The notes under the pieces are model-generated. The model ran no database searches. It was not told the origin of the DNA and saw only the letters and a list, made by a program, of their open reading frames with translations. Made by a program: the position numbers and the translations under genes. From Clostridia bacterium (GTDB lineage Bacteria > CBDUZB01 > JAGLHV01): a stretch of 64,000 nt of DNA. The stretch spans positions 5,802 to 69,801 of the forward strand of contig DAOVVV010000008.1 of the NCBI GenBank assembly GCA_030637025.1. The letters run 5' to 3'. Shown here one piece after another: positions 16,956 through 57,358 of the stretch. Every line of letters starts with the position of its first letter. Position 1 is the first letter of the stretch.

Positions 16956-18545
16956 ATGAATTTACAACAACCAAATGCAAATGAAGCAATACAGACCTCA
17001 AACCGGTCAAGAAATGTTTCTCCGGTATCGGGACTTTGTACCCGTTGTATTGACGGATGTCGTGGTAACTGCGATGTTTTTAAAGCAACATTTAGAGGAC
17101 GGGAAGTAATTTATCCGGGACCTTTCGGAGATATTACTGCAGGAGGAGATAAAGAGTATCCTATAGATTATTCACATCTTAATATTTTAGGATATGCAAT
17201 GGGTGCGAAGGGACTTCCCGAAGGAGTCGAAGCCGGACCGGATACGGCAACTTTTCCGGCTGTAAAAACTGAAACCGAATATGGTTGGGACAAGAAAGTA
17301 AAACTGAAAGTACCTATTTTTACCGGGGCATTAGGTTCTACGGAAATTGCCCGCAAAAATTGGGAACATTTTGCCATTGGGGCCGCAATTTCCGGGGTAA
17401 CCCTGGTTTGCGGAGAAAATGTCTGTGGAATTGATCCAAAACTCGAGTTAGATGCTAAAGGTAAAGTTAAAAATGCTCCTGATATGGATCGTAGAATCGA
17501 AACTTACAGAAGATTTCACGGCGGCTATGGTGAAATATTAGTTCAAATGAATGTAGAAGATACCCGTCTGGGTGTTGCCGAATATGTGTTAAATAAACAT
17601 AAATTGGAGACGATTGAGCTGAAATGGGGACAAGGGGCAAAATGTATCGGTGGAGAAATTAAAGTAAAAAGTATTGAAAGGGCATTGGAACTCAAAAAAC
17701 GCGGGTATATTGTTACGCCGGATCCAACAGTTCATTCAGTGAAAGAAGCATATAAAGTTGGAGAAATTAAGGAATTTGAACGGCATTCCCGTCTTGGATT
17801 TGTTTCCGAAGAAGGTTTTTTGGCTGAGGTAGAACGTTTAAGAAAAATTGGTTTTAAACGTGTTACTTTAAAAACAGGTGCTTATCCAATGAGAGAACTG
17901 GCCATGGCGATTAAATACTGTTCAATTGCTAATATTGACCTCTTAACCATTGATGGTGCTCCGGGTGGAACAGGAATGAGCCCCTGGAGAATGATGCAGG
18001 AATGGGGTATTCCCACATTCTATTTACAGTCGATGACCCAGGAGATTTGTGAGAAGTTAACTAAAAAAGGAATGCGTGTTCCTGATATTGCTATCGCCGG
18101 TGGTTTTTCTACTGAAGATCATGTATTTAAGGTGCTTGCTATGGGTGCGCCTTATACAAAAGCTGTTTGTATGGGTAGAGCACTAATGATTCCCGGAATG
18201 GTAGGTAAAAATATTGGCCAATGGATGAAAGAAAACAACTTACCCAAAACAGTTTCTCAATATGGAAAGACAGCAGAAGAAATCTTTGTTTGTTATGAAG
18301 AGCTGGTTGATGAATATGGGAAAGACATGAAAGATATTCCATTAGGTGCTATTGGTATTTATTGCTTTTCACAGAAAATAAAAGTAGGGCTACAGCAATT
18401 AATGGCTGGTACCCGAAATTTTAAACTTTCAACTATTACCAGAAAAGATGTTACCGCTCTTACTCAGGAAGCAGCTAAAGTATCGGGAATACCTTATGTG
18501 ATGGACGCTTATCGTCAGGAAGCAGAGGCTATTCTGGAAGGTTAA
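16956..18545 (+). CDS. glutamate synthase FMN-binding domain-2-like protein (archaeal-type standalone GltB subunit) with N-terminal 4Fe-4S Cys cluster
   Basis: N-terminal Cys-rich CTRCIDGCRGNC motif, GltS FMN-domain signature and a glycine-rich FMN/phosphate loop. Confidence 0.7.
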   Translation: MNLQQPNANEAIQTSNRSRNVSPVSGLCTRCIDGCRGNCDVFKATFRGREVIYPGPFGDITAGGDKEYPIDYSHLNILGYAMGAKGLPEGVEAGPDTATFPAVKTETEYGWDKKVKLKVPIFTGALGSTEIARKNWEHFAIGAAISGVTLVCGENVCGIDPKLELDAKGKVKNAPDMDRRIETYRRFHGGYGEILVQMNVEDTRLGVAEYVLNKHKLETIELKWGQGAKCIGGEIKVKSIERALELKKRGYIVTPDPTVHSVKEAYKVGEIKEFERHSRLGFVSEEGFLAEVERLRKIGFKRVTLKTGAYPMRELAMAIKYCSIANIDLLTIDGAPGGTGMSPWRMMQEWGIPTFYLQSMTQEICEKLTKKGMRVPDIAIAGGFSTEDHVFKVLAMGAPYTKAVCMGRALMIPGMVGKNIGQWMKENNLPKTVSQYGKTAEEIFVCYEELVDEYGKDMKDIPLGAIGIYCFSQKIKVGLQQLMAGTRNFKLSTITRKDVTALTQEAAKVSGIPYVMDAYRQEAEAILEG

Positions 18546-19610: not shown

Positions 19611-20627
19611 ATGAATGACAAAAATATTAATGATTGGGAAAATTTAAAAGATGAGGAATTACTGGATTTTCGACTTTGTGATTTTCATTTAAATATTAAG
19701 GGAACAGAGCTGGAAATTTATGTACAACAACTTTATCGGGAACTTACCCAAAAAAATATCATTTTTCATCCTGCCTGTTATTTAGCAGATGAATGGCTCT
19801 GTCCTGACCTGGAGCCGGTAATTGGAATTCCTTTCTATCTGGCTCATCCCCGTTTAAAAAAAATAGAACATAAAATAATGCTGGATGTAGAGGGGGAAAC
19901 AAAATCTTCCTGTATGCGCCTTTTAAGGCACGAAGCCGGACATACTATCAACTATGCTTATCGTTTATACCGAAGAAAACGATGGAAAGAATTATTTGGT
20001 TTGTTTTCTAAAGACTATCCGGAAAAATACCGCTTTCGGCCTTATAGCAAAGGTTATGTGCGACATTTAGAAGACTGGTATGCTCAGTATCATCCTGATG
20101 AGGATTTTGCTGAAACCTTTGCTGTATGGCTGACTCCTAAAAGTAAATGGAGAGAGGAATATCTCGGATGGAAAGCCCTGGAAAAACTGGAATATGTTGA
20201 TCATTTAATGAAAGAAATCAGCAATAAACAGCCCTTAATAAAAACAGGTAAAAAATTATGGCAGGTTTCCCGGCTGACATTAAAATTAAAAACTTATTAT
20301 CGACGAAAAAGGAAACTTTACGAAGAAGAATACCCGGATTTTCATGATTCCAATCTTAAAGAAATATTTTGTCCTACCGTAACTGCCGGAAAAGCATCAT
20401 CATTTTTAAAACATCATCAAAAACAAATCTTAGATAATGTTTCTATGTGGACCGGAGAAAAAAAATATATAATCAATCGTATTATAAAAGATTTAATTAA
20501 ACGTTGTAATGAATTAAATTTATATACCGGAAATAACGAATGTAATACAGTTTCTAAAGTAACGGCTTACATAACAACATTAATTATGAATTATCTTTAT
20601 ACCGGAGGATTTAAAAAAAGACGATGA
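19611..20627 (+). CDS. putative zinc metallopeptidase-like protein (HEAGH ... E zincin motif), function unknown
   Basis: HEAGHTINYAY with a downstream DEDFAETFAVW. Forms an operon with the following ATP-grasp gene (4-nt overlap). Confidence 0.5.
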   Translation: MNDKNINDWENLKDEELLDFRLCDFHLNIKGTELEIYVQQLYRELTQKNIIFHPACYLADEWLCPDLEPVIGIPFYLAHPRLKKIEHKIMLDVEGETKSSCMRLLRHEAGHTINYAYRLYRRKRWKELFGLFSKDYPEKYRFRPYSKGYVRHLEDWYAQYHPDEDFAETFAVWLTPKSKWREEYLGWKALEKLEYVDHLMKEISNKQPLIKTGKKLWQVSRLTLKLKTYYRRKRKLYEEEYPDFHDSNLKEIFCPTVTAGKASSFLKHHQKQILDNVSMWTGEKKYIINRIIKDLIKRCNELNLYTGNNECNTVSKVTAYITTLIMNYLYTGGFKKRR

Positions 20628-21640
20628 GAAAAAAATTAAAAATTTTAGTTTTATTTGATAGTGCCGGTTCTCCGCCACCGGACCAGAATTTCAAGGAAGC
20701 GTTAAAAACGGAAGGATGGGAAACAGAAGCAGAAGTTATTAATACTCTAAAAAAATTAAGCTATGAAGTAAGGATATTAGGAATTTATGATGATGTAAGT
20801 TTAATTATCAAAGAAGTTGAAGAGCATAAACCAGATGTAGTTTTTAATCTGGCTGAAGTTTTTTTAGGTAAAGCTCGTTTTGACAAAAATGTCCCTTCTA
20901 TTCTGGAAATGTTACCAATACCTTATACCGGTTCAGGCCCGGTAGGTATGATGTTATGTAACAACAAAGCAATTAGTAAAAAAATACTAACTTTTCACCG
21001 GATTAAAGTACCCGGTTTTTATGTGTTTCAGAGAGGAAAACGCATATGGCAACCTAAAAAATTACGCTTTCCTCTTATCGTTAAACCTTTACGAGAAGAA
21101 GCTTCTACAGGCATTGTTCAGGCTTCTTTTGTAGAAAATGAAAAGGAACTTTGTGATAGAGTCGGATTTACTCACGAACAACTTAAAATGGATGCTATTG
21201 CCGAAGAATATATTGAAGGCCGTGAATTGTATGTAAGTATTCTGGGCAGTAAAAAATTAATGGTTTTTCCTTTGCGTGAGATAAAATTTACTCAAGTAAA
21301 TGATAATGAACATAAAATAGCTACTTATAAAGCAAAATGGGATGAAGAATATCGAAAAAAATGGGGCATTAAAAATGAATTTGCCGGGCGTCTTCCTGCG
21401 GATATCCCGGAAAAAATAGAGGAAATTTGTAAAAAAGCCTACCGGGTTTTACAACTCCAGGGATATGCCAGATTTGATATAAAACTGACTCCGGAAAATG
21501 AAATTTTTATTCTGGAAGCAAATGCCAATCCTTCACTGGCCCCGGATGATGAATTTGCCTTATCTGCGGAAAAGGCAGGTATTTCTTATACGCAGTTAAT
21601 CCGGAAAATATTGTATTTTGCTTTCAAACGGAACAGATAA
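20624..21640 (+). CDS. ATP-grasp family ligase (D-alanine--D-alanine ligase-like)
   Basis: Ddl-like N-domain. The ATP-grasp motifs EEYIEGRELYVSILG and FDIKLTPENEIFILEANANP are present. Confidence 0.7.
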   Translation: MRKKLKILVLFDSAGSPPPDQNFKEALKTEGWETEAEVINTLKKLSYEVRILGIYDDVSLIIKEVEEHKPDVVFNLAEVFLGKARFDKNVPSILEMLPIPYTGSGPVGMMLCNNKAISKKILTFHRIKVPGFYVFQRGKRIWQPKKLRFPLIVKPLREEASTGIVQASFVENEKELCDRVGFTHEQLKMDAIAEEYIEGRELYVSILGSKKLMVFPLREIKFTQVNDNEHKIATYKAKWDEEYRKKWGIKNEFAGRLPADIPEKIEEICKKAYRVLQLQGYARFDIKLTPENEIFILEANANPSLAPDDEFALSAEKAGISYTQLIRKILYFAFKRNR

Positions 21641-27756: not shown

Positions 27757-28836
27757 ATGGATTACCGGATTTTACACGTAAATACAGCAAATACCTGGAG
27801 GGGTGGAGAACAACAGGTAGTTTATCTGGTTGAAGGGTTACAATCAAGAGGACACAATAATTTTGTTGTCTGCCAACCAAAAAGTGTTCTGAGGGAAAAA
27901 TTATTTTCTTCGAAAACACCTGTTTTCCCCTTAGCAATGCACGGAGAGTGGGACTTAATTGCGGCTATTAAATTAGCCATGATTATAAAAAAAAATAATA
28001 TCCAAATTCTTCATCTGCATACTGCACATGCTCATACATTAGGATTGTTAGCGGCAAAATTTAATCCCGCTTGTAAGGTAATTGTATCCCGCCGGGTTGA
28101 TTTTCATATTCATTCCCGGTTCAAATATAAAAGGGGAATTAATAAAATAATTACCGTTAGTGAAAGAATCAGGCAGGTACTGATAGAAGATAAAATAGAC
28201 GCAGAAAAAATTGTTGCTGTACATAGCGGGGTTGATTTAGAAAGATTTAATGGAATAAAAAGCAACGGTTATATTTATAAAGAATTCAAACTTGATGGTA
28301 AAACCCCTATAGTAGGAATTGTGGCTGCTTTAGCTCCTCATAAAGATCATCAGAACTTTTTATATGCAGCCGGAAAGTTAAAAGAAAAATATCCTAGGGT
28401 AAAGTTTTTAATCGTAGGAGAAGGAGAATTAAAACAAGATTTAAAAATTTTAACCCGGCAGCTGGGACTGGAAAAAGAAGTAATTTTTACCGGCTTTAGA
28501 AAGGATTCTTTAGAAATTATATCAACCTTTGATGTTTTTGTTTTAAGTTCTTGTCTGGAAGGAATGGGTAGTGTTTTACTGGAAGCAATGGCTTTGGCTA
28601 AACCTATTGTTGCAACCAGAACCGGTGGCATTCCGGAAGTTGTTTTAAACGGAGTAACCGGTATTCTTGTTTCTCCGGGAGATTCCGGAGAATTAGCAAA
28701 TGGGATTATGCAATTGCTTGGAGATAATGCTTTAGCTAAAGAGATGGGTCTAAAGGGAAAGGAAAGAGTAAAAGAATTTAGTAAAGATAAAATGGTAGAA
28801 AAAACCGAAGGGATATATAAAAAAATAATGAGTTAA
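27757..28836 (+). CDS. GT4-family glycosyltransferase (GT-B, retaining)
   Basis: N-terminal HVNTANTWRGGEQQV and a C-terminal EGMGSVLLEAMALAKPIVATRTGGIPEVV EX7E-type motif. Confidence 0.8.
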   Translation: MDYRILHVNTANTWRGGEQQVVYLVEGLQSRGHNNFVVCQPKSVLREKLFSSKTPVFPLAMHGEWDLIAAIKLAMIIKKNNIQILHLHTAHAHTLGLLAAKFNPACKVIVSRRVDFHIHSRFKYKRGINKIITVSERIRQVLIEDKIDAEKIVAVHSGVDLERFNGIKSNGYIYKEFKLDGKTPIVGIVAALAPHKDHQNFLYAAGKLKEKYPRVKFLIVGEGELKQDLKILTRQLGLEKEVIFTGFRKDSLEIISTFDVFVLSSCLEGMGSVLLEAMALAKPIVATRTGGIPEVVLNGVTGILVSPGDSGELANGIMQLLGDNALAKEMGLKGKERVKEFSKDKMVEKTEGIYKKIMS

Positions 28837-28992
28837 GACAAAAACTTAATCTTTCTTCAATTGTCAAGAAAAAAAATGGCAATCTAAAAAAAACAAAGGG
28901 ATTATGACTTGTTTTATCCATTAAAAAATAGTAAAATAAATTGTATTAATTTAAAAATAAAAGCTTTTGATAAATTCTGGAAAGGGGAGATT

Positions 28993-30606
28993 ATGCAGAA
29001 ATATTCTTTTGATGCTGTTATTTTTGACTTGGATGGTGTTGTTACTAAAACAGCCCTTCTACATTCTGAAGCATGGAAAGAAACTTTTGATCAATATTTA
29101 CAACAAAGAAAAAACAAGAACAATAAACCTTTTCGCGAGTTTACCCATGAGGATGATTATCTTCCTTTTGTTGATGGTAAACCTAAATACGAGGGGGTTA
29201 AGAGTTTTTTTCAATCACGCGGAATTAATATTCCCTTTGGTGACCCCTCCGATACTGCCGATAAAAATACTATTTGTGGTGTTGGCAATAAAAAAAATAT
29301 TCTTTTTAGACAATTACTTAAAAAAAGGGGAGCAGAGACTTATCCTAGTACCATTCAATTTATAAAAAATCTGAAGGAATCAGGCATCAGAGTAGGGGTT
29401 GCTTCGTCTTCGAGAAATTGTGAAACCATTCTGGAATCCGTAGGTTTAGAAAAATTGTTCGAGACAAGAGTTGACGGGGTAGTTTCTGCACAACTTAAGC
29501 TTAAAGGTAAACCGGAAGGAGATATTTTTGTTAAAGCGTCACGTAATTTAAATGCCGTCCCATCCAAAACTGTTATAGTGGAAGATGCTATTTCAGGAAT
29601 TCAGGCAGGAAGAAACGGAGGATTTGGATTGGTTCTTGGTGTAGCAAGGAACAATAATGAATCTGAGCTTATTGAAAACGGGGCAGATATTGTAGTTAGC
29701 GATTTAGCAAAAATAAGCATGGAATATATTGAAAAGTGGTTTCACCGCAAGCCGTTATCTTTACCTTCTTTTTTAGAAAGCAACAAAGAAACAATAAATA
29801 ATTTATCCGAAAACAGAACGAATGGAAAAGATGTAATTATTAATTCCCACTATAATCACAATAATATATCCACCCTTTTTAACAAAAAAAAAGTTGTATT
29901 TCTGGATTATGACGGCACTTTGACTCCCATTGTAGAACGGCCGGAACTGGCTGTTTTGTCATCGGAAATGAGAGCGGCGATAAAACATCTTGCTGAAAAA
30001 TATACTGTTGCTATTGTTAGCGGAAGAATGAGAGAAGATGTAGAAAAACTTGTTGGAATTAAGGGGATTTTTTATGCAGGAAGTCATGGTTTTGATATTA
30101 TGGGCCCCGGTTTTTCTATGATGCATCCTAAAGTTAAAGAAATTATGCCGGTTATTTCGCAAATAATCAAACAGCTTTCTGAAAAATTGAGTGATATACA
30201 GGGGATATTAATTGAAGAAAAAAAATTTAGTGTAGCTGTTCACTATCGTCTTGTTGAGCAACAATATTTGCCTCGGATTAAAGAAATTATCGATGAGATT
30301 ATTAAAGACCAAAATAAAATTTGTTTAATGAGCGGGAAAAAAGTTTTTGAAATTTTACCTGATATTGATTGGGATAAAGGCAAGGCAGTACGATGGATTA
30401 TAGACGCTTTAAAAGTTTCCTGGCAAGATGTCTGTGTGGTCTACATCGGAGATGATGTTACCGATGAATATGCCTTTAGAACGCTCCGTACAAGAGGGTT
30501 TGGAATTTTAGTTTCTAACGAATCTAAAGAATCGGCTGCGGATTTTAGACTATCTTCAACAGAAGAAGTAAAAAAATTGTTTGAGAAGGTTGTTGCTCAT
30601 GCCTGA
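28993..30606 (+). CDS. fusion: beta-phosphoglucomutase-like HAD hydrolase (N) + trehalose-6-phosphate phosphatase (C)
   Basis: Two HAD DxD motifs: AVIFDLDGVVT (beta-PGM-like, with cap) and VVFLDYDGTLTP (OtsB-like). Start chosen at the ATG after aaaggggag. Confidence 0.7.
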   Translation: MQKYSFDAVIFDLDGVVTKTALLHSEAWKETFDQYLQQRKNKNNKPFREFTHEDDYLPFVDGKPKYEGVKSFFQSRGINIPFGDPSDTADKNTICGVGNKKNILFRQLLKKRGAETYPSTIQFIKNLKESGIRVGVASSSRNCETILESVGLEKLFETRVDGVVSAQLKLKGKPEGDIFVKASRNLNAVPSKTVIVEDAISGIQAGRNGGFGLVLGVARNNNESELIENGADIVVSDLAKISMEYIEKWFHRKPLSLPSFLESNKETINNLSENRTNGKDVIINSHYNHNNISTLFNKKKVVFLDYDGTLTPIVERPELAVLSSEMRAAIKHLAEKYTVAIVSGRMREDVEKLVGIKGIFYAGSHGFDIMGPGFSMMHPKVKEIMPVISQIIKQLSEKLSDIQGILIEEKKFSVAVHYRLVEQQYLPRIKEIIDEIIKDQNKICLMSGKKVFEILPDIDWDKGKAVRWIIDALKVSWQDVCVVYIGDDVTDEYAFRTLRTRGFGILVSNESKESAADFRLSSTEEVKKLFEKVVAHA

Positions 30607-33451
30607 AAAAGCGAATGAGGATATTAATAAAACTTCTAATTGGAAATTATCTTATAACCAATTTCAACCGGTGCAGGAGGGACTAAGAGAATCGCTTTGT
30701 ACTCTGGGGAATGGTTATTTAGGAACCAGGGGAGCTATTTATGAATCTCCTGCTTCCAGGGTACATTATCCGGGTACTTACATTGCCGGAGTTTATAACG
30801 AATTGCCTACAATTATTGCCGGGAGAAAAACATTAAACGAAGATTTTGTTAATTGTCCTAATTGGTTGTTTTTAACTTTTAAAAATGAAAAAGGAAATTG
30901 GGTTTCTCTTTCCACCAGTAAAATTCTTTTTTATCATCAAGAACTTGATTTTCGCCGGGGAGTTCTTATAAGAAAGGTCCGGCTTCAGAATGATAATGGA
31001 CAAATAACCACTATTGAAACAGAAAGGATTGTCCATTTAGTATATCCGCATTGTGTTGCAATTAAATATACCGTTATTCCTGAAAATTATGAAGGTTTCA
31101 TAACAATAAAATCAGCACTTGATGGAACAGTACAAAATACCGGTGTTCCTAGATATAGACAATTAAACTCTAAACATCTGATGCCTTCTTCCCTGGGAAG
31201 CTTTGATAATAACGGGGTTTATCTGGCAATGAAAACGACCCAATCCAATATTAAAATTTGCCAGGCAGCAAAAGTGCTGATATCTATTAACGGCAAAAAA
31301 ATTAAATCAGTAAATAAAGTTTCGACTAAAAAGAAAGAAAAAATTGAGCAGGAATTTAAAGTATTTGTGCGTCAACAACAACGCTGTGAGATTGAAAAAA
31401 TCGTTACTATTTATACCTCTAAAGATAAAGATATTAGTAATCCGCTTTCTTCCGCTATTAATTCAGTAAAAAAACATCCCGGATTTGATGTGCTTTTTAA
31501 AACTCATCAATCTGCGTGGAAAGATTTATGGAAAAAATTTGATATTCAAATTAACGGTGATGCTTTTTCCCAAAAAGTACTAAGACTGCATATTTTCCAT
31601 TTATTGCAAACAGCCTCTATTCATAATACTAAGATTGATGCCGGACTTCCAGCCAGAGGATTACATGGAGAAGCTTATCGCGGGCATATTTTTTGGGATG
31701 AACTTTTTGTTATGTCTTTTTTTGATTTCCATAGTCCGGAAATATCAAAAGCATTGCTTTTATATAGATACCAGCGTCTTATACCTGCCAGAAAATCTGC
31801 GAAAAAAAGCGGATATAAGGGAGCAATGTTTCCCTGGCAGAGCGGTTCTGACGGCAAGGAAAAAACTCAGTTTATTCATTTGAATCCAATGTCAGGTAAA
31901 TGGGGGCCCGATCATACTTATGTGCAAAGGCATGTTTCCTTTGCTATTGCTTATAATGTATGGCAATATTGGAAAAAATCTAACGACCTGGATTTTCTTG
32001 TAAATTACGGGGCTGAAATAATACTGTCAATTGCTCAATTCGGAGCCAGTCTTGCCCAATATGACGTTGAAGATAGTAGATATCATACCCATGACCTTAT
32101 GGGCCCCGATGAATTTCACGAAAAAGTTTCTAATTCACAAAAGCCCGGATTTAAAGATAATGCTTATACTAATTTGTTAATTGTGTGGACATTACTTAAA
32201 GCAAAAGAAGTTATTGCTATTTTACCTCCACAGCATCGAACCAAGATAATTAAGAAATTAAAACTTGATCAAACTGAATTACTGCGATGGAAAGATATTA
32301 CCCGTAAGATGAAGATATCTATCAATAATGAAGGCATTATTGGCCAGTTTGACGGATATTTTAAATTAAAAGAATTAAATTGGGATGCTTACAGAAGAAA
32401 ATATGATAAAATCGAACGTATGGATAGAATTTTAAAAGCGGAAGGAAAATCACCGAACGATTATAAAGCAGCCAAGCAAGCAGATGTTTTGATGCTCTTT
32501 TACTTATTTCCTTTATTTGAAATAAAAGATTTGTTTCATCGGTTAGGATATAGGTTTGATCGGTACGTTTTGAAAAGAAATTATGAATATTATATAAAAA
32601 GAACTTCACATGGCTCAAGTTTGAGTAAAGTTGTTCACTGTTACATTTCTTATTTATTAGGAAAGTCAAAAGAAGGATGGCAGTGGTTTTCCAGTGTTCT
32701 CAAATCAGATATTTATGATGTTCAGGGAGGAACAACTGTTGAGGGTATTCATACCGGCATAATGGGTGGTTCCATTGATATGGTGGTAAGAGGATTCGCC
32801 GGAGTATATATGGGGGAGCAGATAATTAATATTACTCCTAATCTTCCTCCTCATTGGCAAAGTCTCAGGCTTAAATTTTGTTATAGGAGAAATTGGTTTT
32901 CTTTATTTATAACTAAAGAACAAATTACTATTTCTATAGCCGGATCCAAATCCAAAGAATTTGCTGTTCCCGTTAAAATCCATGGAAAATTATATCATTT
33001 CTTTTTTGGAAAAAAATATAGTATTTCTCTTGAAAAAAATATTAAGGGGAAAGGGAATTCGAAAATGATACAAAAAAGGATATTAATTGTTGACGGAAAT
33101 ATTACTCAAACGGAAATACTAAAAACAAGATTACAAGCTATGGGTTATTTAATAGATTGTGCCCACACGGGTAAAGAAGCTTTGGATGTTTTAGAAACCA
33201 AATGGGTAGATTTAATTATATCTGCTATTATTTTTCAAGGAGGAATGAACGGTTTTCAATTTTTTAAAGAAGTAAAAAAGAGGAAACGGCTTTCAAAAAT
33301 ACCTATTGCTATGCAAAGCAGTAAAGCTGCAATGAAAAAAATATTTGAGATAATGGGAGTAGATATCTTTTTTGTTAAACCGTATTCTGTAGATTTATTT
33401 TTGAACGAAGTAAAAAATATTTTAAATAAAGAAGATATTTGTTCTCAGTAG
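30599..33451 (+). CDS. GH65 glycoside phosphorylase (trehalose/kojibiose/maltose phosphorylase family) fused to a C-terminal degenerate receiver (pseudo-REC) domain
   Basis: GH65 N-terminal, catalytic (alpha/alpha)6 and C-terminal domains. An in-frame CheY-like domain at the last ~125 aa has DD->DG and phospho-Asp->Ala changes. The ATG at 30599 overlaps the upstream stop (ATGCCTGA). Confidence 0.7.
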   Translation: MPEKANEDINKTSNWKLSYNQFQPVQEGLRESLCTLGNGYLGTRGAIYESPASRVHYPGTYIAGVYNELPTIIAGRKTLNEDFVNCPNWLFLTFKNEKGNWVSLSTSKILFYHQELDFRRGVLIRKVRLQNDNGQITTIETERIVHLVYPHCVAIKYTVIPENYEGFITIKSALDGTVQNTGVPRYRQLNSKHLMPSSLGSFDNNGVYLAMKTTQSNIKICQAAKVLISINGKKIKSVNKVSTKKKEKIEQEFKVFVRQQQRCEIEKIVTIYTSKDKDISNPLSSAINSVKKHPGFDVLFKTHQSAWKDLWKKFDIQINGDAFSQKVLRLHIFHLLQTASIHNTKIDAGLPARGLHGEAYRGHIFWDELFVMSFFDFHSPEISKALLLYRYQRLIPARKSAKKSGYKGAMFPWQSGSDGKEKTQFIHLNPMSGKWGPDHTYVQRHVSFAIAYNVWQYWKKSNDLDFLVNYGAEIILSIAQFGASLAQYDVEDSRYHTHDLMGPDEFHEKVSNSQKPGFKDNAYTNLLIVWTLLKAKEVIAILPPQHRTKIIKKLKLDQTELLRWKDITRKMKISINNEGIIGQFDGYFKLKELNWDAYRRKYDKIERMDRILKAEGKSPNDYKAAKQADVLMLFYLFPLFEIKDLFHRLGYRFDRYVLKRNYEYYIKRTSHGSSLSKVVHCYISYLLGKSKEGWQWFSSVLKSDIYDVQGGTTVEGIHTGIMGGSIDMVVRGFAGVYMGEQIINITPNLPPHWQSLRLKFCYRRNWFSLFITKEQITISIAGSKSKEFAVPVKIHGKLYHFFFGKKYSISLEKNIKGKGNSKMIQKRILIVDGNITQTEILKTRLQAMGYLIDCAHTGKEALDVLETKWVDLIISAIIFQGGMNGFQFFKEVKKRKRLSKIPIAMQSSKAAMKKIFEIMGVDIFFVKPYSVDLFLNEVKNILNKEDICSQ

Positions 33452-48234: not shown

Positions 48235-48264
48235 TTGAAGTGAATAATAAAAAATTTGTATAAT
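48235..48264 (+). promoter_or_regulatory. candidate promoter TTGAAG-N18-TATAAT for mtnA
   Basis: TATAAT at 48259-48264, preceded by TG two nt upstream. Weak -35. Confidence 0.35.
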
Positions 48265-48304: not shown

Positions 48305-49357
48305 ATGAAAGTTAACGGTAAACATTACAGAACTGTCTGGATGAAAGATTCATCCGTGTTTTTAATCGAACAAAATCTCCTGCCTTTTGATTTTAAAATT
48401 TATGAAGCAAAAAATTATCCGGATACTTGCCGGGCAATTAAAACAATGATGGTAAGGGGTTCTATGGCTATTGGTGCAGCAGCGGGATTTGCTATGGCAC
48501 AAGCTTTCTTAGAAGCCCCTGAAAAAAATTTCTCCCAATTTATTGAAAAGGCTAAAAGAGACATCGAGTTAACACGGCCCACTGCTCAGAATTTATTTCA
48601 TGCAGTGAATCATGTTTATAATGCTGCAAAAAAATCAAAAAAACCAAGAGAAACCGCAATGTTTACCGCACAAAAATTTGCTGATGATGATGCTGCCGCT
48701 TGCAGGAAAATAGGTGAACATGGAAACACTTTAATCAAAGATAATTATAATATTGAAACCCATTGTAATGCCGGCTGGCTTGCCTGCGTTGATTATGGTA
48801 GTGCTTTATCTCCCATATATATTGCTCATCAAAACGGAAAAAAAGTTTTTGTCTATGTTGATGAAACAAGACCCCGAAATCAAGGGGCAAAGCTTACTGC
48901 CTGGGAACTTAAAAACGAAGAAATACCACATCTTATTTTGCCTGATAATGCCGGAGCTTATTTAATGTCACAGGGAAAAGTAGATATGATGATTGTCGGG
49001 GCAGACAGGATTGCCCAAAACGGTGATGTAGCAAATAAAATCGGTACACTGGAAAAAGCCATTGTGGCCAAAGAATTTGATGTACCATTTTATGTTACTG
49101 CCACAATTCCGACGTTTGACCTAAATTGTAATTCTGGCAGGGACATTCCCATTGAAGAGAGAAGTGAAGAGGAAGTTTTGTATCAAACCGGTCGCTCGAT
49201 AAAAGGAAAGTTAGAAAAAATTTTGGTGTGCTCACCCGGGTCAAAGGCTATAAACCCGGCTTTTGATATAACCCCGGCAAAATATATTACCGGATTTATT
49301 ACTGAAAAAGGAATAATTAAACCGGATGCATCTGCCATAAAAAAATTATTTGCTTAA
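48305..49357 (+). CDS. mtnA: S-methyl-5-thioribose-1-phosphate isomerase (eIF2B-like family)
   Basis: eIF-2B-related fold: conserved MMVRGSMAIGAAAGFAMA and C-terminal GADRIAQNGDVANKIGT. Confidence 0.85.
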   Translation: MKVNGKHYRTVWMKDSSVFLIEQNLLPFDFKIYEAKNYPDTCRAIKTMMVRGSMAIGAAAGFAMAQAFLEAPEKNFSQFIEKAKRDIELTRPTAQNLFHAVNHVYNAAKKSKKPRETAMFTAQKFADDDAAACRKIGEHGNTLIKDNYNIETHCNAGWLACVDYGSALSPIYIAHQNGKKVFVYVDETRPRNQGAKLTAWELKNEEIPHLILPDNAGAYLMSQGKVDMMIVGADRIAQNGDVANKIGTLEKAIVAKEFDVPFYVTATIPTFDLNCNSGRDIPIEERSEEEVLYQTGRSIKGKLEKILVCSPGSKAINPAFDITPAKYITGFITEKGIIKPDASAIKKLFA

Positions 49358-49375
49358 CTAAAGGTTAAAGGTTAT

Positions 49376-49960
49376 ATGATTTACCAAGGTATAAAGTTTA
49401 AAACTAAAATTATCAATAAAGAAATTCCAAAACATCCCGGACTGGAAGAGTTAAAATACTGGTGTAGGGAATTTCACAAGTTTCATCTGGCACCACCATA
49501 TAGTGGTGGTTCTTATGGTAATTTAAGTTTTCGGGTAAAAAAGGGGGAGGATTCTTTTATAATTACCGGGTCCAAAATCGGTTTAAAAGAAAAATTATCC
49601 GATGATTGTTTTGTAAAAGTTCTCTCATCTAATTTAAAAGCAAAAACTATTTTTATCTCAGGCATAAAAGAACCTTCTTCTGAAAGCAAGCTTCATTTAG
49701 CTATTTACCGGCAAAGAAAAGATATAAATGCCATATTTCACGGACATTGCAAAAAAATTTTATCTAATGCAGACAGATTAAAAATACCCCAAACCCAAAA
49801 AGAAGAACTCTATGGAACAATGGAATTAGTTCAGAGGGTTTTGGAGATATTAGATGATAAATCTTTCCTGATAATGAAAAATCATGGATTTATTTCTTTA
49901 GGTAAAACAATGGAGAAAGCAGGAAAATTAGCTTTGGAAATTCATAAAAAATGTTTATAA
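49376..49960 (+). CDS. class II aldolase/adducin-family protein (MtnB dehydratase or Ald2-type methylthioribulose-1-P aldolase)
   Basis: Class II aldolase fold with metal-binding His residues (HGHC, KNHG). Adjacent to mtnA. Confidence 0.6.
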   Translation: MIYQGIKFKTKIINKEIPKHPGLEELKYWCREFHKFHLAPPYSGGSYGNLSFRVKKGEDSFIITGSKIGLKEKLSDDCFVKVLSSNLKAKTIFISGIKEPSSESKLHLAIYRQRKDINAIFHGHCKKILSNADRLKIPQTQKEELYGTMELVQRVLEILDDKSFLIMKNHGFISLGKTMEKAGKLALEIHKKCL

Positions 49961-49976
49961 AAAAGGAGGAATAATT

Positions 49977-50378
49977 ATGCGAGTAGCAATATCTACAGAT
50001 GCAGACTCTGTATCTGCTCATTTTGGTCGATGTCCGTCTTTTACTATTGTGGACATTGAAGAGGGGAAGATTATAAAAAAAGAAGTTATTGATAATCCGG
50101 GGCATCATCCCGGGTTTATCCCGCAGTTTTTAAACGAAAAAGGGGTTAAATGTATTGTTGCCGGGGGTATGGGAATGAGAGCAACCGGACTTTTTAATGA
50201 ATTCGGTATTCAGACTATTATCGGTATAAGTGGAAAAATTGATGAAGTTATCGATAAACTACAAAAAGGGACCCTGCAAAGCGGTGAAAGTCTATGCCGG
50301 CCTGGTGCAGGAAAGGGTTATGGTTTGGATAAAACTGAATGTAACCACCCTGCCGAAGATGATTGTGACCACAAATAA
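49977..50378 (+). CDS. NifX/NifB-C-terminal-like dinitrogenase FeMo-cofactor-binding-fold protein with Cys/His-rich tail
   Basis: MRVAISTD...HFGRCPSFTIVDIEEGK pattern of PF02579. The tail CRPGAGKGYGLDKTECNHPAEDDCDHK is Cys/His-rich. Confidence 0.6.
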   Translation: MRVAISTDADSVSAHFGRCPSFTIVDIEEGKIIKKEVIDNPGHHPGFIPQFLNEKGVKCIVAGGMGMRATGLFNEFGIQTIIGISGKIDEVIDKLQKGTLQSGESLCRPGAGKGYGLDKTECNHPAEDDCDHK

Positions 50379-50441
50379 AAGAAAAATTCAAGATAAAAAA
50401 ATCCGGATATAAAAATAAGCAACAGAATAATAGGGGGAATT

Positions 50442-51044
50442 TTGGAAAAAGAGGTAATAGAAAACCATCAACGGTATTTAGAGAGAATAAATGTTTATAA
50501 AAAATTTGGCTATGATAATGAAAAAGAAAGGGATTTTATTATCCAAAAAGCACAACCTATAGGTGGTCGTATATTAGAGGTTGGCACAGGGAAGGGACAT
50601 CTAAGCATTGCTTTAGCCAAGAAGGGCTATAGCTTTGTTAGTGTTGATATTTCAAAAGAAGAGCAAGAGTTTGCCCAACTGAGCATTCAATATTTAGAGT
50701 TGAATAAACAAGTAGATTTTAAAATAGAAAGTGCCAAACATTTAAATTTTGACAACGGAAGCTTTGATACAATTATTTCCGTTAATTTAGTTCATCACCT
50801 TACAAATTTGTTTGAAGTTGTAGATGAATGGCTCCGAATTGTTTCTTCGGACGGTAAGATTATTTTAAGTGATTTTACCCGGGAGGGGCTGGAAGTAATC
50901 GATAAAGTTCATTTAAATGAAGGAAGAAAACACCCTGTTGGTGAAATTAATTTAACAGATATAGATAATTACTTAATAGCAAAAAAAATCAGGGTAGAAA
51001 AGTATAGAAGCAAATTTCAGGAAATATCGATAATAAAAATTTAG
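50442..51044 (+). CDS. class I SAM-dependent methyltransferase (TTG start)
   Basis: Motif I ILEVGTGKGHLSIALAKKG and post-I DIS. RBS tagggggaa. Confidence 0.65.
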   Translation: MEKEVIENHQRYLERINVYKKFGYDNEKERDFIIQKAQPIGGRILEVGTGKGHLSIALAKKGYSFVSVDISKEEQEFAQLSIQYLELNKQVDFKIESAKHLNFDNGSFDTIISVNLVHHLTNLFEVVDEWLRIVSSDGKIILSDFTREGLEVIDKVHLNEGRKHPVGEINLTDIDNYLIAKKIRVEKYRSKFQEISIIKI

Positions 51045-51052
51045 GGTTAAGA

Positions 51053-51631
51053 ATGAATATACTGGCAATTAACGGTAGTCCGAAAAAAAATGGGAAGATA
51101 AGTAGAATAGTTAAGGAAATCATAAAAGGAGCATCAGAAGAAAACAATAAATGTGAAATTTTATATTTATCAGATATTAAAAACATAAATGATTGTAAGG
51201 GTTGTATGCAATGCCAGGAACAAGGAAAATGCATAATAAGAGATGATATTCTGATTGTTGAAGAGGCGATAAAAAGAAATGAAGTAATAATATTTGCTAC
51301 GCCAACACACTGGGGAAATGTTTCCGGAATAATGCTGCGAATGATAGAACGATTATTCGGTTTTTTAATCGAAGAAAAACCATTAGGATTTCCTGTTGCT
51401 AAGGCAGGAAAGGGAAAGAAGGCTATATTGGTTACTGCCTGCAGTACATCCTGGCCGTTTAATTGGATATTTAATCAATCACGAGCTTGTTTTGGCCGGT
51501 TAAAGGAAGTTTGTAAATACAGCGGCATAAAGATAATAAAAACTTTTACTTTGCCTGGAACAACAAAGATGGATAAAATACCGCAAAAATATTTAATTAA
51601 AGCTTTTATGCTCGGAAGAAAGATTAAATAA
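51053..51631 (+). CDS. iron-sulfur flavoprotein (Isf) of the NADPH-dependent FMN reductase family
   Basis: Flavodoxin-like fold with the compact CxxCxxCx5C motif (CKGCMQCQEQGKC) characteristic of Isf. Confidence 0.6.
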   Translation: MNILAINGSPKKNGKISRIVKEIIKGASEENNKCEILYLSDIKNINDCKGCMQCQEQGKCIIRDDILIVEEAIKRNEVIIFATPTHWGNVSGIMLRMIERLFGFLIEEKPLGFPVAKAGKGKKAILVTACSTSWPFNWIFNQSRACFGRLKEVCKYSGIKIIKTFTLPGTTKMDKIPQKYLIKAFMLGRKIK

Positions 51632-51697
51632 AAATATGTTTTATTTTTTTATTGACAAATGATATTAATTTAGTATCATAAAGTAAAGGAGACAAAC

Positions 51698-54120: not shown

Positions 54121-54501
54121 ATGACTAAATTAAGAGAGCTTTACCGTTGTAATATTTGTGGAAATGTTGTGGAAATAACCCATGAAGGGGCACCGGCACT
54201 GGTATGTTGTAATCAGCCAATGGTAAAACTGGAGGCCAAAACCGAGGATACCGGAAGCGAAAAACATGTTCCGGTAATAGAAGAAATCGATGGTGGAACC
54301 ACCATAAAAGTAGGAAGTATTGCCCATCCTATGGAGGAAAAACACTATATCAAATTTATCGAAGTCCTGACCAAGGATAAAGTTTTACGGATAGAATTAA
54401 AACCCGGACAAAATCCCGAGGTTCAATCTTGTGTATCAAAAGAGGATATATTAGAAGTACGGGAATTTTGTACTGTACATGGCCTATGGAAGAATAAATA
54501 A
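54121..54501 (+). CDS. dfx: desulfoferrodoxin (2Fe superoxide reductase)
   Basis: Domain I CxxC-x15-CC (CNICGN...VCCNQPM). Domain II carries the SOR His/Cys ligands. Confidence 0.85.
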   Translation: MTKLRELYRCNICGNVVEITHEGAPALVCCNQPMVKLEAKTEDTGSEKHVPVIEEIDGGTTIKVGSIAHPMEEKHYIKFIEVLTKDKVLRIELKPGQNPEVQSCVSKEDILEVREFCTVHGLWKNK

Positions 54502-54546: not shown

Positions 54547-55122
54547 ATGGGAAGTATAAAAGGAACAAAAACAGAAAAAAATCTTTTGGCATCTTTTGCC
54601 GGAGAATCACAAGCAAGAAATCGTTATACTTATTTTTCTTCTGTCGCCAGAAAAGAAGGATATGAACAAATAGCAGCGATATTCTTAGAAACTGCGGACA
54701 ATGAAAAGGAACATGCTAAAAGATTCTTTAAATTCCTGGAAGGCGGGGAAATAGAAATTGCAGCAAGCTATCCTGCCGGAGTTATTAATGATACCGCAGC
54801 TAATCTGGAAGCTGCCGCAGCAGGGGAAAATATGGAATGGACCAAACTTTATAAAGAAGCGGAAAAAACGGCCGGAGAGGAAGGATTTGAAGAAATAGCT
54901 GATTTATTTAAAGAAATAGCTGAAGTAGAAGAAGAGCATGAAAAACGCTACCGAAAATTACTTAAAAATATAAAAGAATGCAAGGTTTTTCAAAAAGATA
55001 CCGTGGTTAAATGGAAATGCCGCAATTGTGGATATGTTCACGAAGGAAAAGAGGCCCCTCAACTATGCCCGGCTTGTGCCCATCCGCAAAGTTATTACGA
55101 ATTGCTCTGTGAAAATTATTAA
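54547..55122 (+). CDS. rbr: rubrerythrin
   Basis: N-terminal diiron four-helix bundle (ExxH x2) and a C-terminal rubredoxin domain (CRNCGY...CPAC). Confidence 0.9.
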
Positions 55123-56314: not shown

Positions 56315-57358
56315 ATGCAAATTATCTTAAATATTATTAAAGAAGCATATTTTTTATTAAACCAAATGTCAGTATATCTGGTTTTTGGTTTTTTATTTGC
56401 CGGGATTTTACATATTTTTATACGAGAAGAAATAATTGCTAAACATCTGGGTAAAAATAATTTTCTGTCGGTAATAAAAGCATCTCTATTTGGTATTCCT
56501 TTACCTCTTTGCTCCTGTGGGGTAATTCCTGCAGCGTTGTCTTTACGCAAAAGCGGAGCAAGCAGGGGGGCGGTACTTTCTTTTTTGATTTCCACTCCCA
56601 CCACCGGAATTGATTCTATTTTTGCTACCTACGCTTTGCTGGGTGGAGTTTTTACTGTTTATCGGGTATTGGCTTCTTTTGTCATTGCCGTATTTGCCGG
56701 GATATTGGCCAATTTATTTTTAAAAAAAGAAGAGCCCCCTTTTAATTCCAGCGATAATAAATATAAGTGCAAACTTTGTCATAATAATGAGCATTCTCCG
56801 TTAAAACATAGTATTTCAAAGAGAATTAAAGGTGTTTTTACTTACGCCTTTGGCGATCTTTTAGGGGATGTTAGTAAATGGCTGCTAATCGGTATTTTAA
56901 TTGGCGGAATAATATCATATCTTATTCCGGAAACATTGGTTATGCGTTATCTTGGCTCCGGATGGCAATCGATATTTATTATGCTTTTGGTGGGAATACC
57001 AATGTATGTATGTTCTTCCGGTTCCCTGCCTATAGCAGCAGCATTAATCTTAAAAGGAATGAACCCCGGAGCAGCCTTTGTCTTTCTTTTAGCCGGTCCG
57101 GCTACAAATTCAGTAGCTCTCACCGTTATTGCTAATCAGTTTGGAAAAAAAACTGTTTTTATTTTTTTAATTTCAATTATCGGATGCGGGCTGGGATTGG
57201 GTTTTTTGTTAAATTATGTATGGGGTTTTTTAAATATTGATATCACCCAACACATAGCACAGCATACTGCTATGATTCCTTTCTGGATGAGCACCATAGC
57301 CAGTATTTTTTTATTATCAGGTATGTTATTTAATATCATCAAACAAAAAAAACAATAA
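56315..57358 (+). CDS. permease of the DUF318/YraQ (ArsP-like) family with CSCG motif
   Basis: Eight or more TM segments. PLCSCGVIPAALSL is characteristic of the family. Confidence 0.55.
   Translation: MQIILNIIKEAYFLLNQMSVYLVFGFLFAGILHIFIREEIIAKHLGKNNFLSVIKASLFGIPLPLCSCGVIPAALSLRKSGASRGAVLSFLISTPTTGIDSIFATYALLGGVFTVYRVLASFVIAVFAGILANLFLKKEEPPFNSSDNKYKCKLCHNNEHSPLKHSISKRIKGVFTYAFGDLLGDVSKWLLIGILIGGIISYLIPETLVMRYLGSGWQSIFIMLLVGIPMYVCSSGSLPIAAALILKGMNPGAAFVFLLAGPATNSVALTVIANQFGKKTVFIFLISIIGCGLGLGFLLNYVWGFLNIDITQHIAQHTAMIPFWMSTIASIFLLSGMLFNIIKQKKQ

Follow-up and report, generated by a model that had tools for sequence, protein, structure and literature searches.

A minimal class II aldolase coupled to mtnA as a candidate oxygen-independent dihydroxyacetone phosphate shunt module in anaerobic bacteria and archaea

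Introduction

All users of S-adenosylmethionine (SAM) must dispose of 5′-deoxyadenosine and 5′-methylthioadenosine (MTA), and to our knowledge the disposal route is not known for most strict anaerobes, candidate phyla radiation (CPR) bacteria and DPANN archaea. A 64,000-nucleotide (nt) stretch of one contig from a Clostridia bacterium (DAOVVV010000008.1; hereafter the window, the 64 kb covered by our window-wide negative results) poses this question in concrete form. In it, mtnA (48305–49357) is followed directly by a gene for a 194-amino-acid (aa) protein of the class II aldolase fold (49376–49960). An earlier note had read this pair, together with three genes downstream, as likely anaerobic MTA salvage through the dihydroxyacetone phosphate (DHAP) shunt. 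What does the second enzyme do with the product of MtnA, and which of the genes belong with it?

Our analysis suggests that mtnA and the second gene, whose product we call the minimal aldolase, probably carry out an oxygen-independent cleavage of the DHAP-shunt type. This reading is built on four observations: the product of the first gene is an MtnA-family protein, its partner has the fold and residues of an aldolase, the two genes recur side by side or fused, and the partner resembles DHAP-shunt aldolases more than the dehydratase MtnB.

Association of the aldolase gene with mtnA

The first gene (plus strand, 350 aa, Pfam IF-2B) is a bona fide mtnA, because its product passes the equivalog cutoff and keeps the catalytic residues. 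It scores 372 bits on NCBIfam TIGR00512 (salvage_mtnA; cutoff 279) and 397 bits on PRK05720 (cutoff 271), and it retains the catalytic Cys within T-H-C-N-A-G and the catalytic Asp within V-G-A-D-R. Its identity is 45% to the DHAP-shunt MtnA of Escherichia coli S88 and 41% to Bacillus DrdI. A ribose-1,5-bisphosphate (R15P) isomerase (e2b2) identity was rejected at 198 bits on TIGR00511, against a cutoff of 314.

The second gene (plus strand; PF00596 Aldolase_II, 78 bits) encodes a minimal class II aldolase-fold protein for which we propose the function of a (5-substituted) ribulose-1-phosphate aldolase. Together with relatives of 187–217 aa it forms a tight clade that has no name and comprises about 200 clusters at 50% identity. 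The relatives numbered 267 at E ≤ 1e-5 in a word-indexed search, 203 at E ≤ 1e-30 when a profile was run exhaustively against 1.84 billion cluster representatives, and 216 in a one-genome-per-species search; neighbourhood counts use the 80 loci kept, all from metagenome-assembled genomes. The bacterial source labels of the clade include Patescibacteria/Parcubacteria, Omnitrophota, Cloacimonadota, Margulisiibacteriota/Saganbacteria, Bacteroidales, Syntrophales, Desulfobacterales, Dehalococcoidia, Planctomycetia and Chlorobiota, and the archaeal ones include Nano-, Woese-, Alti- and Bathyarchaeia.

In 40 of the 80 loci the gene directly upstream of the aldolase, in the same orientation, is mtnA. 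These loci span at least eight phylum-level labels of bacteria, with Patescibacteria, Omnitrophota, Cloacimonadota, Margulisiibacteriota, Bacteroidota and Planctomycetia among the sources, and include one archaeon. This adjacency is far beyond chance. The two genes are also found fused: a single 561-aa open reading frame (ORF; P0170) consists of a full-length MtnA, 62% identical to that of the window, and then an aldolase, 48% identical, and sits well inside a 17-kb archaeal contig among archaeal neighbours such as prefoldin and UPF0147. Two other ORFs run from the C terminus of MtnA into the aldolase, namely P0122 (282 aa, its N terminus possibly truncated) and P0061, in which a frameshift inside mtnA weakens it as evidence of fusion. 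Multi-phylum synteny and the fusions together argue that mtnA and the aldolase are functionally coupled, and the gene order from which the earlier note had started is real and conserved.

Besides mtnA, no conserved partner emerged from clustering of 840 neighbour ORFs or from a Pfam census of 150 neighbours. The neighbours seen were lineage-specific, such as a two-component system in Bacteroidales, or NadE, YbaK and thioredoxin in Syntrophales. In several Cloacimonadota, mtnA and the aldolase are separated by a small gene of the endonuclease-like DUF559 family (L010, 5494–6000; L027, 5527–6000), and the long ‘aldolase’ ORFs of L010, L027, P0043 and P0123 were rejected as domain fusions, being in-frame read-through from this inserted gene. 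The clade members P0252, P0137 and P0066/L013 have a C-terminal HD phosphohydrolase, DSP-PTPase-like phosphatase or ASCH domain; the phosphatase fusions might indicate that a phosphorylated product is dephosphorylated in those organisms.

Placement of the aldolase in its superfamily

No curated NCBIfam subfamily cutoff, whether for FucA/Ald2/DrdA, MtnB or ribulose-1-phosphate (Ru1P) aldolase, is reached by the 194-aa protein. It scores about 50 bits on FucA-type models with cutoffs of 264–400 (43 bits on the FucA model TIGR01086, cutoff 400), 48.2 bits on the MtnB model TIGR03328 (cutoff 137), where the match covers only profile positions 15–90 of 194, and 35.8 bits on the haloarchaeal Ru1P aldolase model NF053831 (cutoff 300). 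Our reference sequences were Ald2 of E. coli S88, from the mtnK-mtnA-ald2 cluster, and Bacillus DrdA, from the drdK-drdI-drdA cluster. Because these genuine members score 366 bits on NF005984 and 404 bits on NF005302, respectively, where the window protein reaches 48 and 50, and because its architecture is distinct, we rejected orthology with Ald2 or DrdA.

Comparisons between subfamilies nevertheless separate the aldolases from MtnB. The family hidden Markov model (HMM) of the clade gives 45.4 bits to DrdA, 43.7 to Ald2 and 38.8 to FucA, whereas four MtnB sequences obtain 31.4, 27.7, 21.5 and 15.1 bits. With Ald2 and DrdA as tblastn probes, the clade gene is detected in 80 of 81 sequences; the MtnB of Bacillus velezensis finds it in 24 of 81 and that of Turneriella in none (0/81). 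The best sequence match in the PDB is DrdA (6BTD; E 4e-8), with FucA next. By these rankings the minimal aldolase branches off deeply and separately within the superfamily, closer to the aldolases that form DHAP from ketose-1-phosphates than to MtnB, and the window protein looks like an aldolase rather than an MtnB. The aldolase assignment of the earlier note is supported to this extent, but not as an orthologue of the known shunt enzymes. We found no paper describing the clade in the literature covered, outside which lies the likeliest survey, North et al. 2020.

Active-site residues and predicted structure

Conservation was counted over 77 clade members, and the same 77 underlie an AlphaFold (AF2) model of the minimal aldolase with a predicted local distance difference test (pLDDT) score of 91.8. 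In Foldseek comparisons this model gives template modelling (TM) scores of 0.69–0.72 to FucA, 0.69 to DrdA (6BTD) and 0.60–0.63 to Aquifex aq_1979 (2IRP), which we take to be an MtnB, though its PDB entry is titled fuculose-phosphate aldolase. AraD, POD and HMPDdc are also among the fold matches.

FucA, Ald2 of E. coli S88, DrdA of Bacillus and four MtnB sequences annotated by PGAP were aligned jointly with the clade protein; of these references Ald2 comes closest (33% identity). The alignment contains a shared core of invariant positions: N49, S51, P100, S101, E103, H107, Y111, H122, H124, H170 and G171. Among clade members these positions vary little or not at all: H107, H122, H124 and H170 are constant, and the counts elsewhere in the pocket are 77/77 for N49 and S101, 76/77 for T64 and E103 and 75/77 for S102. 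The conserved set comprises the phosphate pocket, the three metal-binding His and E103, the equivalent of FucA Glu73 and DrdA Glu76, the last of which is the catalytic base in DrdA (PMC6079011). This Glu was rejected as a discriminator between aldolase and dehydratase, as bacterial MtnB has it too.

Other positions do separate the two activities. The clade and the aldolases read P-S-S-E where MtnB reads P-S-A-E, and [YF]-G-[TS] where MtnB reads x-[DYA]-N. After the H-x-H motif, all four MtnB sequences carry G-x-E-[MI]-x-K, presumably the loop that holds the catalytic Glu139 of human APIP, and the aldolases carry I-P-A-[IV]-[HS]-Y, which includes FucA Tyr113; in the clade this whole segment is missing. 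Compared at the active site, as the earlier note had suggested, the protein thus sides with the aldolases in the missing MtnB loop and in P-S-S-E and Y-G-T, but the Glu/His set is common to MtnB and does not tell the two apart.

Other salvage-pathway genes

Probes for MtnC, MtnD, MtnW, MtnX, MtnE and RuBisCO-like protein (RLP) had no match across the window or up to 6 kb away at the 80 loci, and over this range the earlier statement that the oxygen-dependent pathway is missing (mtnC, mtnD, mtnW, mtnX) holds. Probes for MtnK and DeoD were likewise negative in the window and within 6 kb at the 80 loci. The source organism looks anaerobic, as had been supposed, from two genes whose products exceed their equivalog cutoffs: a desulfoferrodoxin (54121–54501; 167 bits, cutoff 147) and a rubrerythrin (54547–55122; 308 bits, cutoff 200).

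At three Cloacimonadota loci, the next gene after the aldolase encodes a homologue of the MtaD/DadD aminohydrolase family; its best models include TRZ/ATZ hydrolase, 5′-deoxyadenosine deaminase and MTA/S-adenosylhomocysteine deaminase, all below their cutoffs. An amidohydrolase near the pair in L015 and L100 was rejected as a further link of this kind because it is unrelated. Separately, a plasmid of Brucella anthropi (pOANT04; L081, 2733–8154) has a cluster in which mtnK-mtnA leads into a split transketolase and then a RuBisCO-like protein, with no aldolase or MtnB, an arrangement that points to a different downstream fate for the product of MtnA.

Neighbouring genes and locus layout

Three more genes follow the pair, and the earlier note had treated them as a continuation of the same operon. 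An ORF check reproduced all five genes on the plus strand at the coordinates given before (48305–51631). The third (49977–50378, 133 aa) encodes a small PF02579 (NifX/NafY-type ‘Nitro_FeMo-Co’) protein, with 78 bits on the Pfam model; the domain occupies residues 10–97, the tail contains three Cys and two His, and the protein resembles the C-terminal domain of MrpORP. The fourth (50442–51044, 200 aa, TTG start) encodes a class I SAM-dependent methyltransferase that matches Methyltransf_11/25/23 and reaches no NCBIfam cutoff. The fifth (51053–51631, 192 aa) encodes an iron-sulfur-flavoprotein-like flavin mononucleotide (FMN) reductase (FMN_red 60 bits, Flavodoxin_2 53 bits; no NCBIfam model matched). 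Iron-sulfur flavoproteins (Isf) combine a flavodoxin-like FMN domain with a compact CX2CX2CX4-7C motif, and this protein has both, its Isf-like Cys residues being C48-x2-C51-x2-C54-x5-C60.

The gaps between the five genes are, in order, 18, 16, 63 and 8 nt; no terminator-like site was found in these spacers, and RBS-like (ribosome-binding-site-like) purine-rich runs precede the starts. Upstream of mtnA by 41 nt is a promoter-like site, TTGAAG-18-TATAAT (48235–48264, plus strand, 10/12 matches), within an 85-nt divergent spacer on whose other side lies a minus-strand metallophosphoesterase gene; promoter-like sites in the region do not exceed the shuffled expectation, which makes this site weak evidence. 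An Rfam scan of the window gave no family at the gathering threshold and no SAM riboswitch before mtnA.

The PF02579 protein, methyltransferase and flavoprotein occur near the aldolase at none of the 80 related loci. The nearest relatives, L001 and L002, with aldolases 86% and 83% identical to that of the window, have unrelated large repeat proteins downstream; L001 shares the upstream metallophosphoesterase of the window. Beyond the trio, a promoter-like site at 51652–51679, which ranks second in the region scanned and first on its plus strand, precedes a gene for an Rrf2 regulator.

Between 51053 and 58922, the window encodes the Isf-like flavoprotein, the Rrf2 regulator, a D-2-hydroxyacid dehydrogenase, a ferritin/rubrerythrin-like protein with an N-terminal CxxC pair, the desulfoferrodoxin and the rubrerythrin, a glutaredoxin-like and a thioredoxin-reductase-like protein, an ArsP_1 permease and a second pyridine-nucleotide disulfide oxidoreductase. 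The flavoprotein, Rrf2, rubrerythrin, desulfoferrodoxin, glutaredoxin-like and thioredoxin-reductase genes make up a coherent redox-stress neighbourhood. Because of this context, the Rrf2 promoter-like site and the lack of co-occurrence at the 80 loci, we treat the three downstream genes as neighbours and not as members of the module; they look like part of the redox-stress set.

At a Nanoarchaeota locus (L098, 10854–13391), an aldolase homologue lies just upstream of DUF5320-DUF134-Fer4-PF02579-ArsP_1-PF02579, and the window has its own ArsP_1 permease at 56315–57358. A link through PF02579 was rejected as a probable coincidence, as it is seen at none of the 80 genome loci.

Elsewhere in the window, Pfam scans of the ORFs examined found genes of glutamine/glutamate and carbamoyl-phosphate metabolism, trehalose-type genes, a Pst-PhoU operon and redox-stress genes, and showed no additional gene of methionine salvage. 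Among these surroundings is an unusual enzyme–receiver fusion at 30581–33451, in which a response-regulator receiver domain is joined to the C terminus of a GH65 glycoside phosphorylase that has its N-terminal, catalytic and C-terminal domains; the fusion gene adjoins a GT4 glycosyltransferase gene (27757–28836) and a HAD(beta-PGM-like)–trehalose-phosphatase fusion (28909–30606). A stand-alone 529-aa protein (16956–18545) has as its sole domain the FMN/‘Glu_synthase’ domain of GOGAT. At 19611–21640, the end of a Peptidase_Mx-like gene overlaps the start of a D-Ala-D-Ala-ligase-like ATP-grasp gene.

Proposed reaction

From the residues and the gene association we infer the type of reaction, its substrates and its physiological role. 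The functional unit would be the two-gene module of mtnA and the minimal aldolase. MtnA would convert 5-deoxyribose-1-phosphate, 5-methylthioribose-1-phosphate or both to the matching ribulose-1-phosphates. The first of these substrates comes from 5′-deoxyadenosine, a by-product of radical SAM enzymes, and the second from MTA. In the aldolase, the ketose-1-phosphate (C1-phosphate, C2=O, C3-OH) would be bound at a divalent metal held by His122, His124 and His170, with its phosphate in a pocket formed by Asn49, Thr64-Gly65 and Ser101-Ser102. Glu103, acting as base, would start a retro-aldol cleavage between C3 and C4, and the predicted products are DHAP and either acetaldehyde or 2-(methylthio)acetaldehyde.

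Anaerobes are rich in radical SAM enzymes, and genes for sulfur recovery are absent from the vicinity of the pair; disposal of 5′-deoxyadenosine is therefore at least as likely a purpose as methionine salvage. The substrate may be 5-deoxyribulose-1-phosphate as much as 5-methylthioribulose-1-phosphate (MTRu-1-P), and the earlier note had no good ground for stressing MTA and sulfur salvage above 5′-deoxyadenosine disposal. In characterized systems, the DHAP shunt handles MTA and 5′-deoxyadenosine about equally well (PMC13474568, PMC6079011, PMC10986504).

Several points weigh against the proposed cleavage. The aldolase fails every curated cutoff, so that its assignment comes from context and a few residues and not from orthology, and we found no biochemical data for clade members in the literature searched. 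Half of the loci have no adjacent mtnA, including most of the archaeal and Syntrophales ones. Bacterial MtnB retains the same Glu and His set, so that the core residues, taken by themselves, are compatible with dehydratase chemistry. The clade lacks both the segment of about 20 residues after H-x-H that contains FucA Tyr113 and a C-terminal tail of about 35 residues, and has an N terminus of about 20 residues of its own, in which F8, W29 and F33 are invariant and K7 and C30 are each found in 76/77 members; the aldehyde pocket can therefore not be deduced from known structures. Finally, MtnP, MtnN and MtnK were not seen in the Pfam matches of the scanned window ORFs or among the commonest families of the 150 neighbours, a search that included no MtnP-specific probe.

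Alternative explanations

The textbook partner of MtnA is MtnB, and the 194-aa protein could be a divergent MtnB that dehydrates MTRu-1-P for canonical or modified methionine salvage, with the later genes elsewhere. Bacterial MtnB shares the Glu, the three His and the phosphate residues, there is a partial 48-bit match to TIGR03328, and a fusion to MtnA would suit either enzyme. That match, however, stays far below the cutoff of 137 and within profile positions 15–90; the G-x-E-[MI]-x-K loop is missing, the motifs read P-S-S-E and Y-G-T rather than P-S-A-E and x-N, the family HMM and tblastn both rank aldolases over MtnB, and the TM score to the structure taken as MtnB is lower (0.60–0.63 against 0.69–0.72). 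With mtnC, mtnD, mtnW and mtnX not found in the window or the 80 neighbourhoods, and hosts from strict-anaerobe lineages, CPR and DPANN, we consider a dehydratase very improbable. The fold itself leaves more room, since it also hosts epimerases, decarboxylases and dioxygenases (AraD, POD and HMPDdc were among the matches), and the clade is equidistant, at about 50 bits, from the curated subfamilies, with a remodelled pocket and a unique, nearly invariant N terminus. An epimerase, isomerase, decarboxylase or oxygenase-type reaction on the product of MtnA would make a new branch of MTA or 5′-deoxyadenosine metabolism. Yet the full FucA-type set of Glu, three His and phosphate pocket is kept, the nearest relatives in both sequence and structure are true aldolases, and an oxygenase is unlikely in strict anaerobes; such a reaction seems improbable to us.

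The chemistry could also be as proposed and the substrate different, with ribose-1-phosphate from ordinary nucleosides converted to Ru1P by MtnA and cleaved to DHAP and glycolaldehyde, a RuBisCO-independent pentose salvage in reduced CPR and DPANN genomes. The clade is frequent in Patescibacteria and Nano-, Woese- and Altiarchaeota, a DeoA-like phosphorylase lies 5 kb off at one Woesearchaeota locus, pyrE and pyrF follow the pair at one Patescibacteria locus, the haloarchaeal Ru1P aldolase (NF053831) is in the same superfamily, and a review credits the enzymes of methionine salvage with enough promiscuity to process ribose (PMC6302742). On the other hand, the isomerase fits the mtnA equivalog and not the R15P isomerase, the Ru1P aldolase model gives 36 bits against 300, no nucleoside phosphorylase is among the conserved neighbours, and the MtaD/DadD-type deaminase neighbours point to 5′-deoxy or methylthio nucleosides; we judge this route unlikely on balance. 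A wider proposal, that this distinct enzyme and MtnA, in some cases within a single chain, form an ancient two-step pentose-1-phosphate shunt in CPR bacteria, DPANN and other archaea, and many anaerobes, either cleaving Ru1P from nucleosides as RuBisCO-independent carbon salvage or performing a non-aldolase reaction on MTRu-1-P that opens anaerobic methionine/sulfur salvage, is speculative and carries some small likelihood. Least credible of all is that the five genes of 48305–51631 serve one pathway, with the PF02579 protein, methyltransferase and flavoprotein processing the aldehyde or thiol product. Their tight co-directional spacing without terminator-like sites in the inner spacers would allow it, MAR, the last enzyme of the DHAP-ethylene shunt of Rhodospirillum rubrum, is nitrogenase-like (PMC13474568), and one Nanoarchaeota locus has PF02579 genes within 3 kb. 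Against this stand the absence of the trio from all 80 loci, even from L001 and L002 with their unrelated downstream genes, the lack of nitrogenase-like MarHDK among the Pfam matches of the scanned window ORFs, and the redox-stress context given by the Isf-type Cys motif and the Rrf2, rubrerythrin, desulfoferrodoxin and thioredoxin reductase neighbours.

Comparison with known systems

DHAP-shunt-type cleavage by MtnA and the minimal aldolase, the reading we prefer, has close counterparts. Ald2 (EC 4.1.2.62), the shunt aldolase of R. rubrum and of the mtnK-mtnA-ald2 cluster in extraintestinal pathogenic E. coli (ExPEC), shares the class II fold, the Glu, the three His and the phosphate residues, and its gene too is directly downstream of mtnA. 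However, Ald2 is a FucA-type protein of 213 aa; in the window clade the Tyr113-type loop and the C-terminal tail are missing and a further segment stands at the N terminus, and the window cluster has no mtnK or mtnP. DrdA of Bacillus thuringiensis (6BTD/6BTG), paired in drdK-drdI-drdA with an MtnA paralogue, has a Glu76 that aligns with Glu103 and a TM score of 0.69, but it is a 215-aa protein from a three-gene cluster with a kinase, and the pocket architecture of the window clade differs. The L-fuculose-1-phosphate aldolase FucA agrees in fold (TM 0.69–0.72), metal ligands, Glu73 equivalent and phosphate site, and departs from the window clade in having the Tyr113 loop and the C-terminal tail; the window protein scores 43 bits on TIGR01086, against a cutoff of 400, and fucI, fucK and fucO were not seen among the Pfam matches of the scanned window ORFs.

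MtnB is of the same superfamily, takes its substrate from MtnA and has the core Glu and His, whereas the window clade fails TIGR03328, lacks the G-x-E-[MI]-x-K loop, has PSSE for PSAE and scores lower against it in sequence and structure. The haloarchaeal Ru1P aldolase of the non-carboxylating pentose bisphosphate pathway (NF053831) is likewise a DHAP-forming pentulose-1-phosphate aldolase acting after an IF-2B-family isomerase, but it is DrdA-like (DrdA scores 191 bits on NF053831), and the isomerase that it works with is R15P-type, unlike the MtnA of the window. Known DHAP-shunt clusters have three genes, one of them for a kinase or phosphorylase and one for an aldolase of the FucA-like kind, and the window module has two genes, fused in some relatives, with an aldolase of about 190 residues. 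What is new is this distinct aldolase architecture, its wide occurrence in CPR and DPANN lineages, and its Rosetta-stone fusion to MtnA; the pathway assignment itself could be guessed by a specialist from annotation.

Implications

The PF02579, methyltransferase and flavoprotein genes, which the earlier note had drawn into the pathway, should stay outside it. If the proposed cleavage is correct, the DHAP shunt would reach archaea and candidate phyla in a stripped-down form of two genes or a single polypeptide, and hundreds of proteins annotated as ‘class II aldolase/adducin family protein’ would gain a function. Biocatalysis would also gain from the clade a DHAP-dependent aldolase scaffold that is compact, at about 190 residues, and has an unusual pocket.

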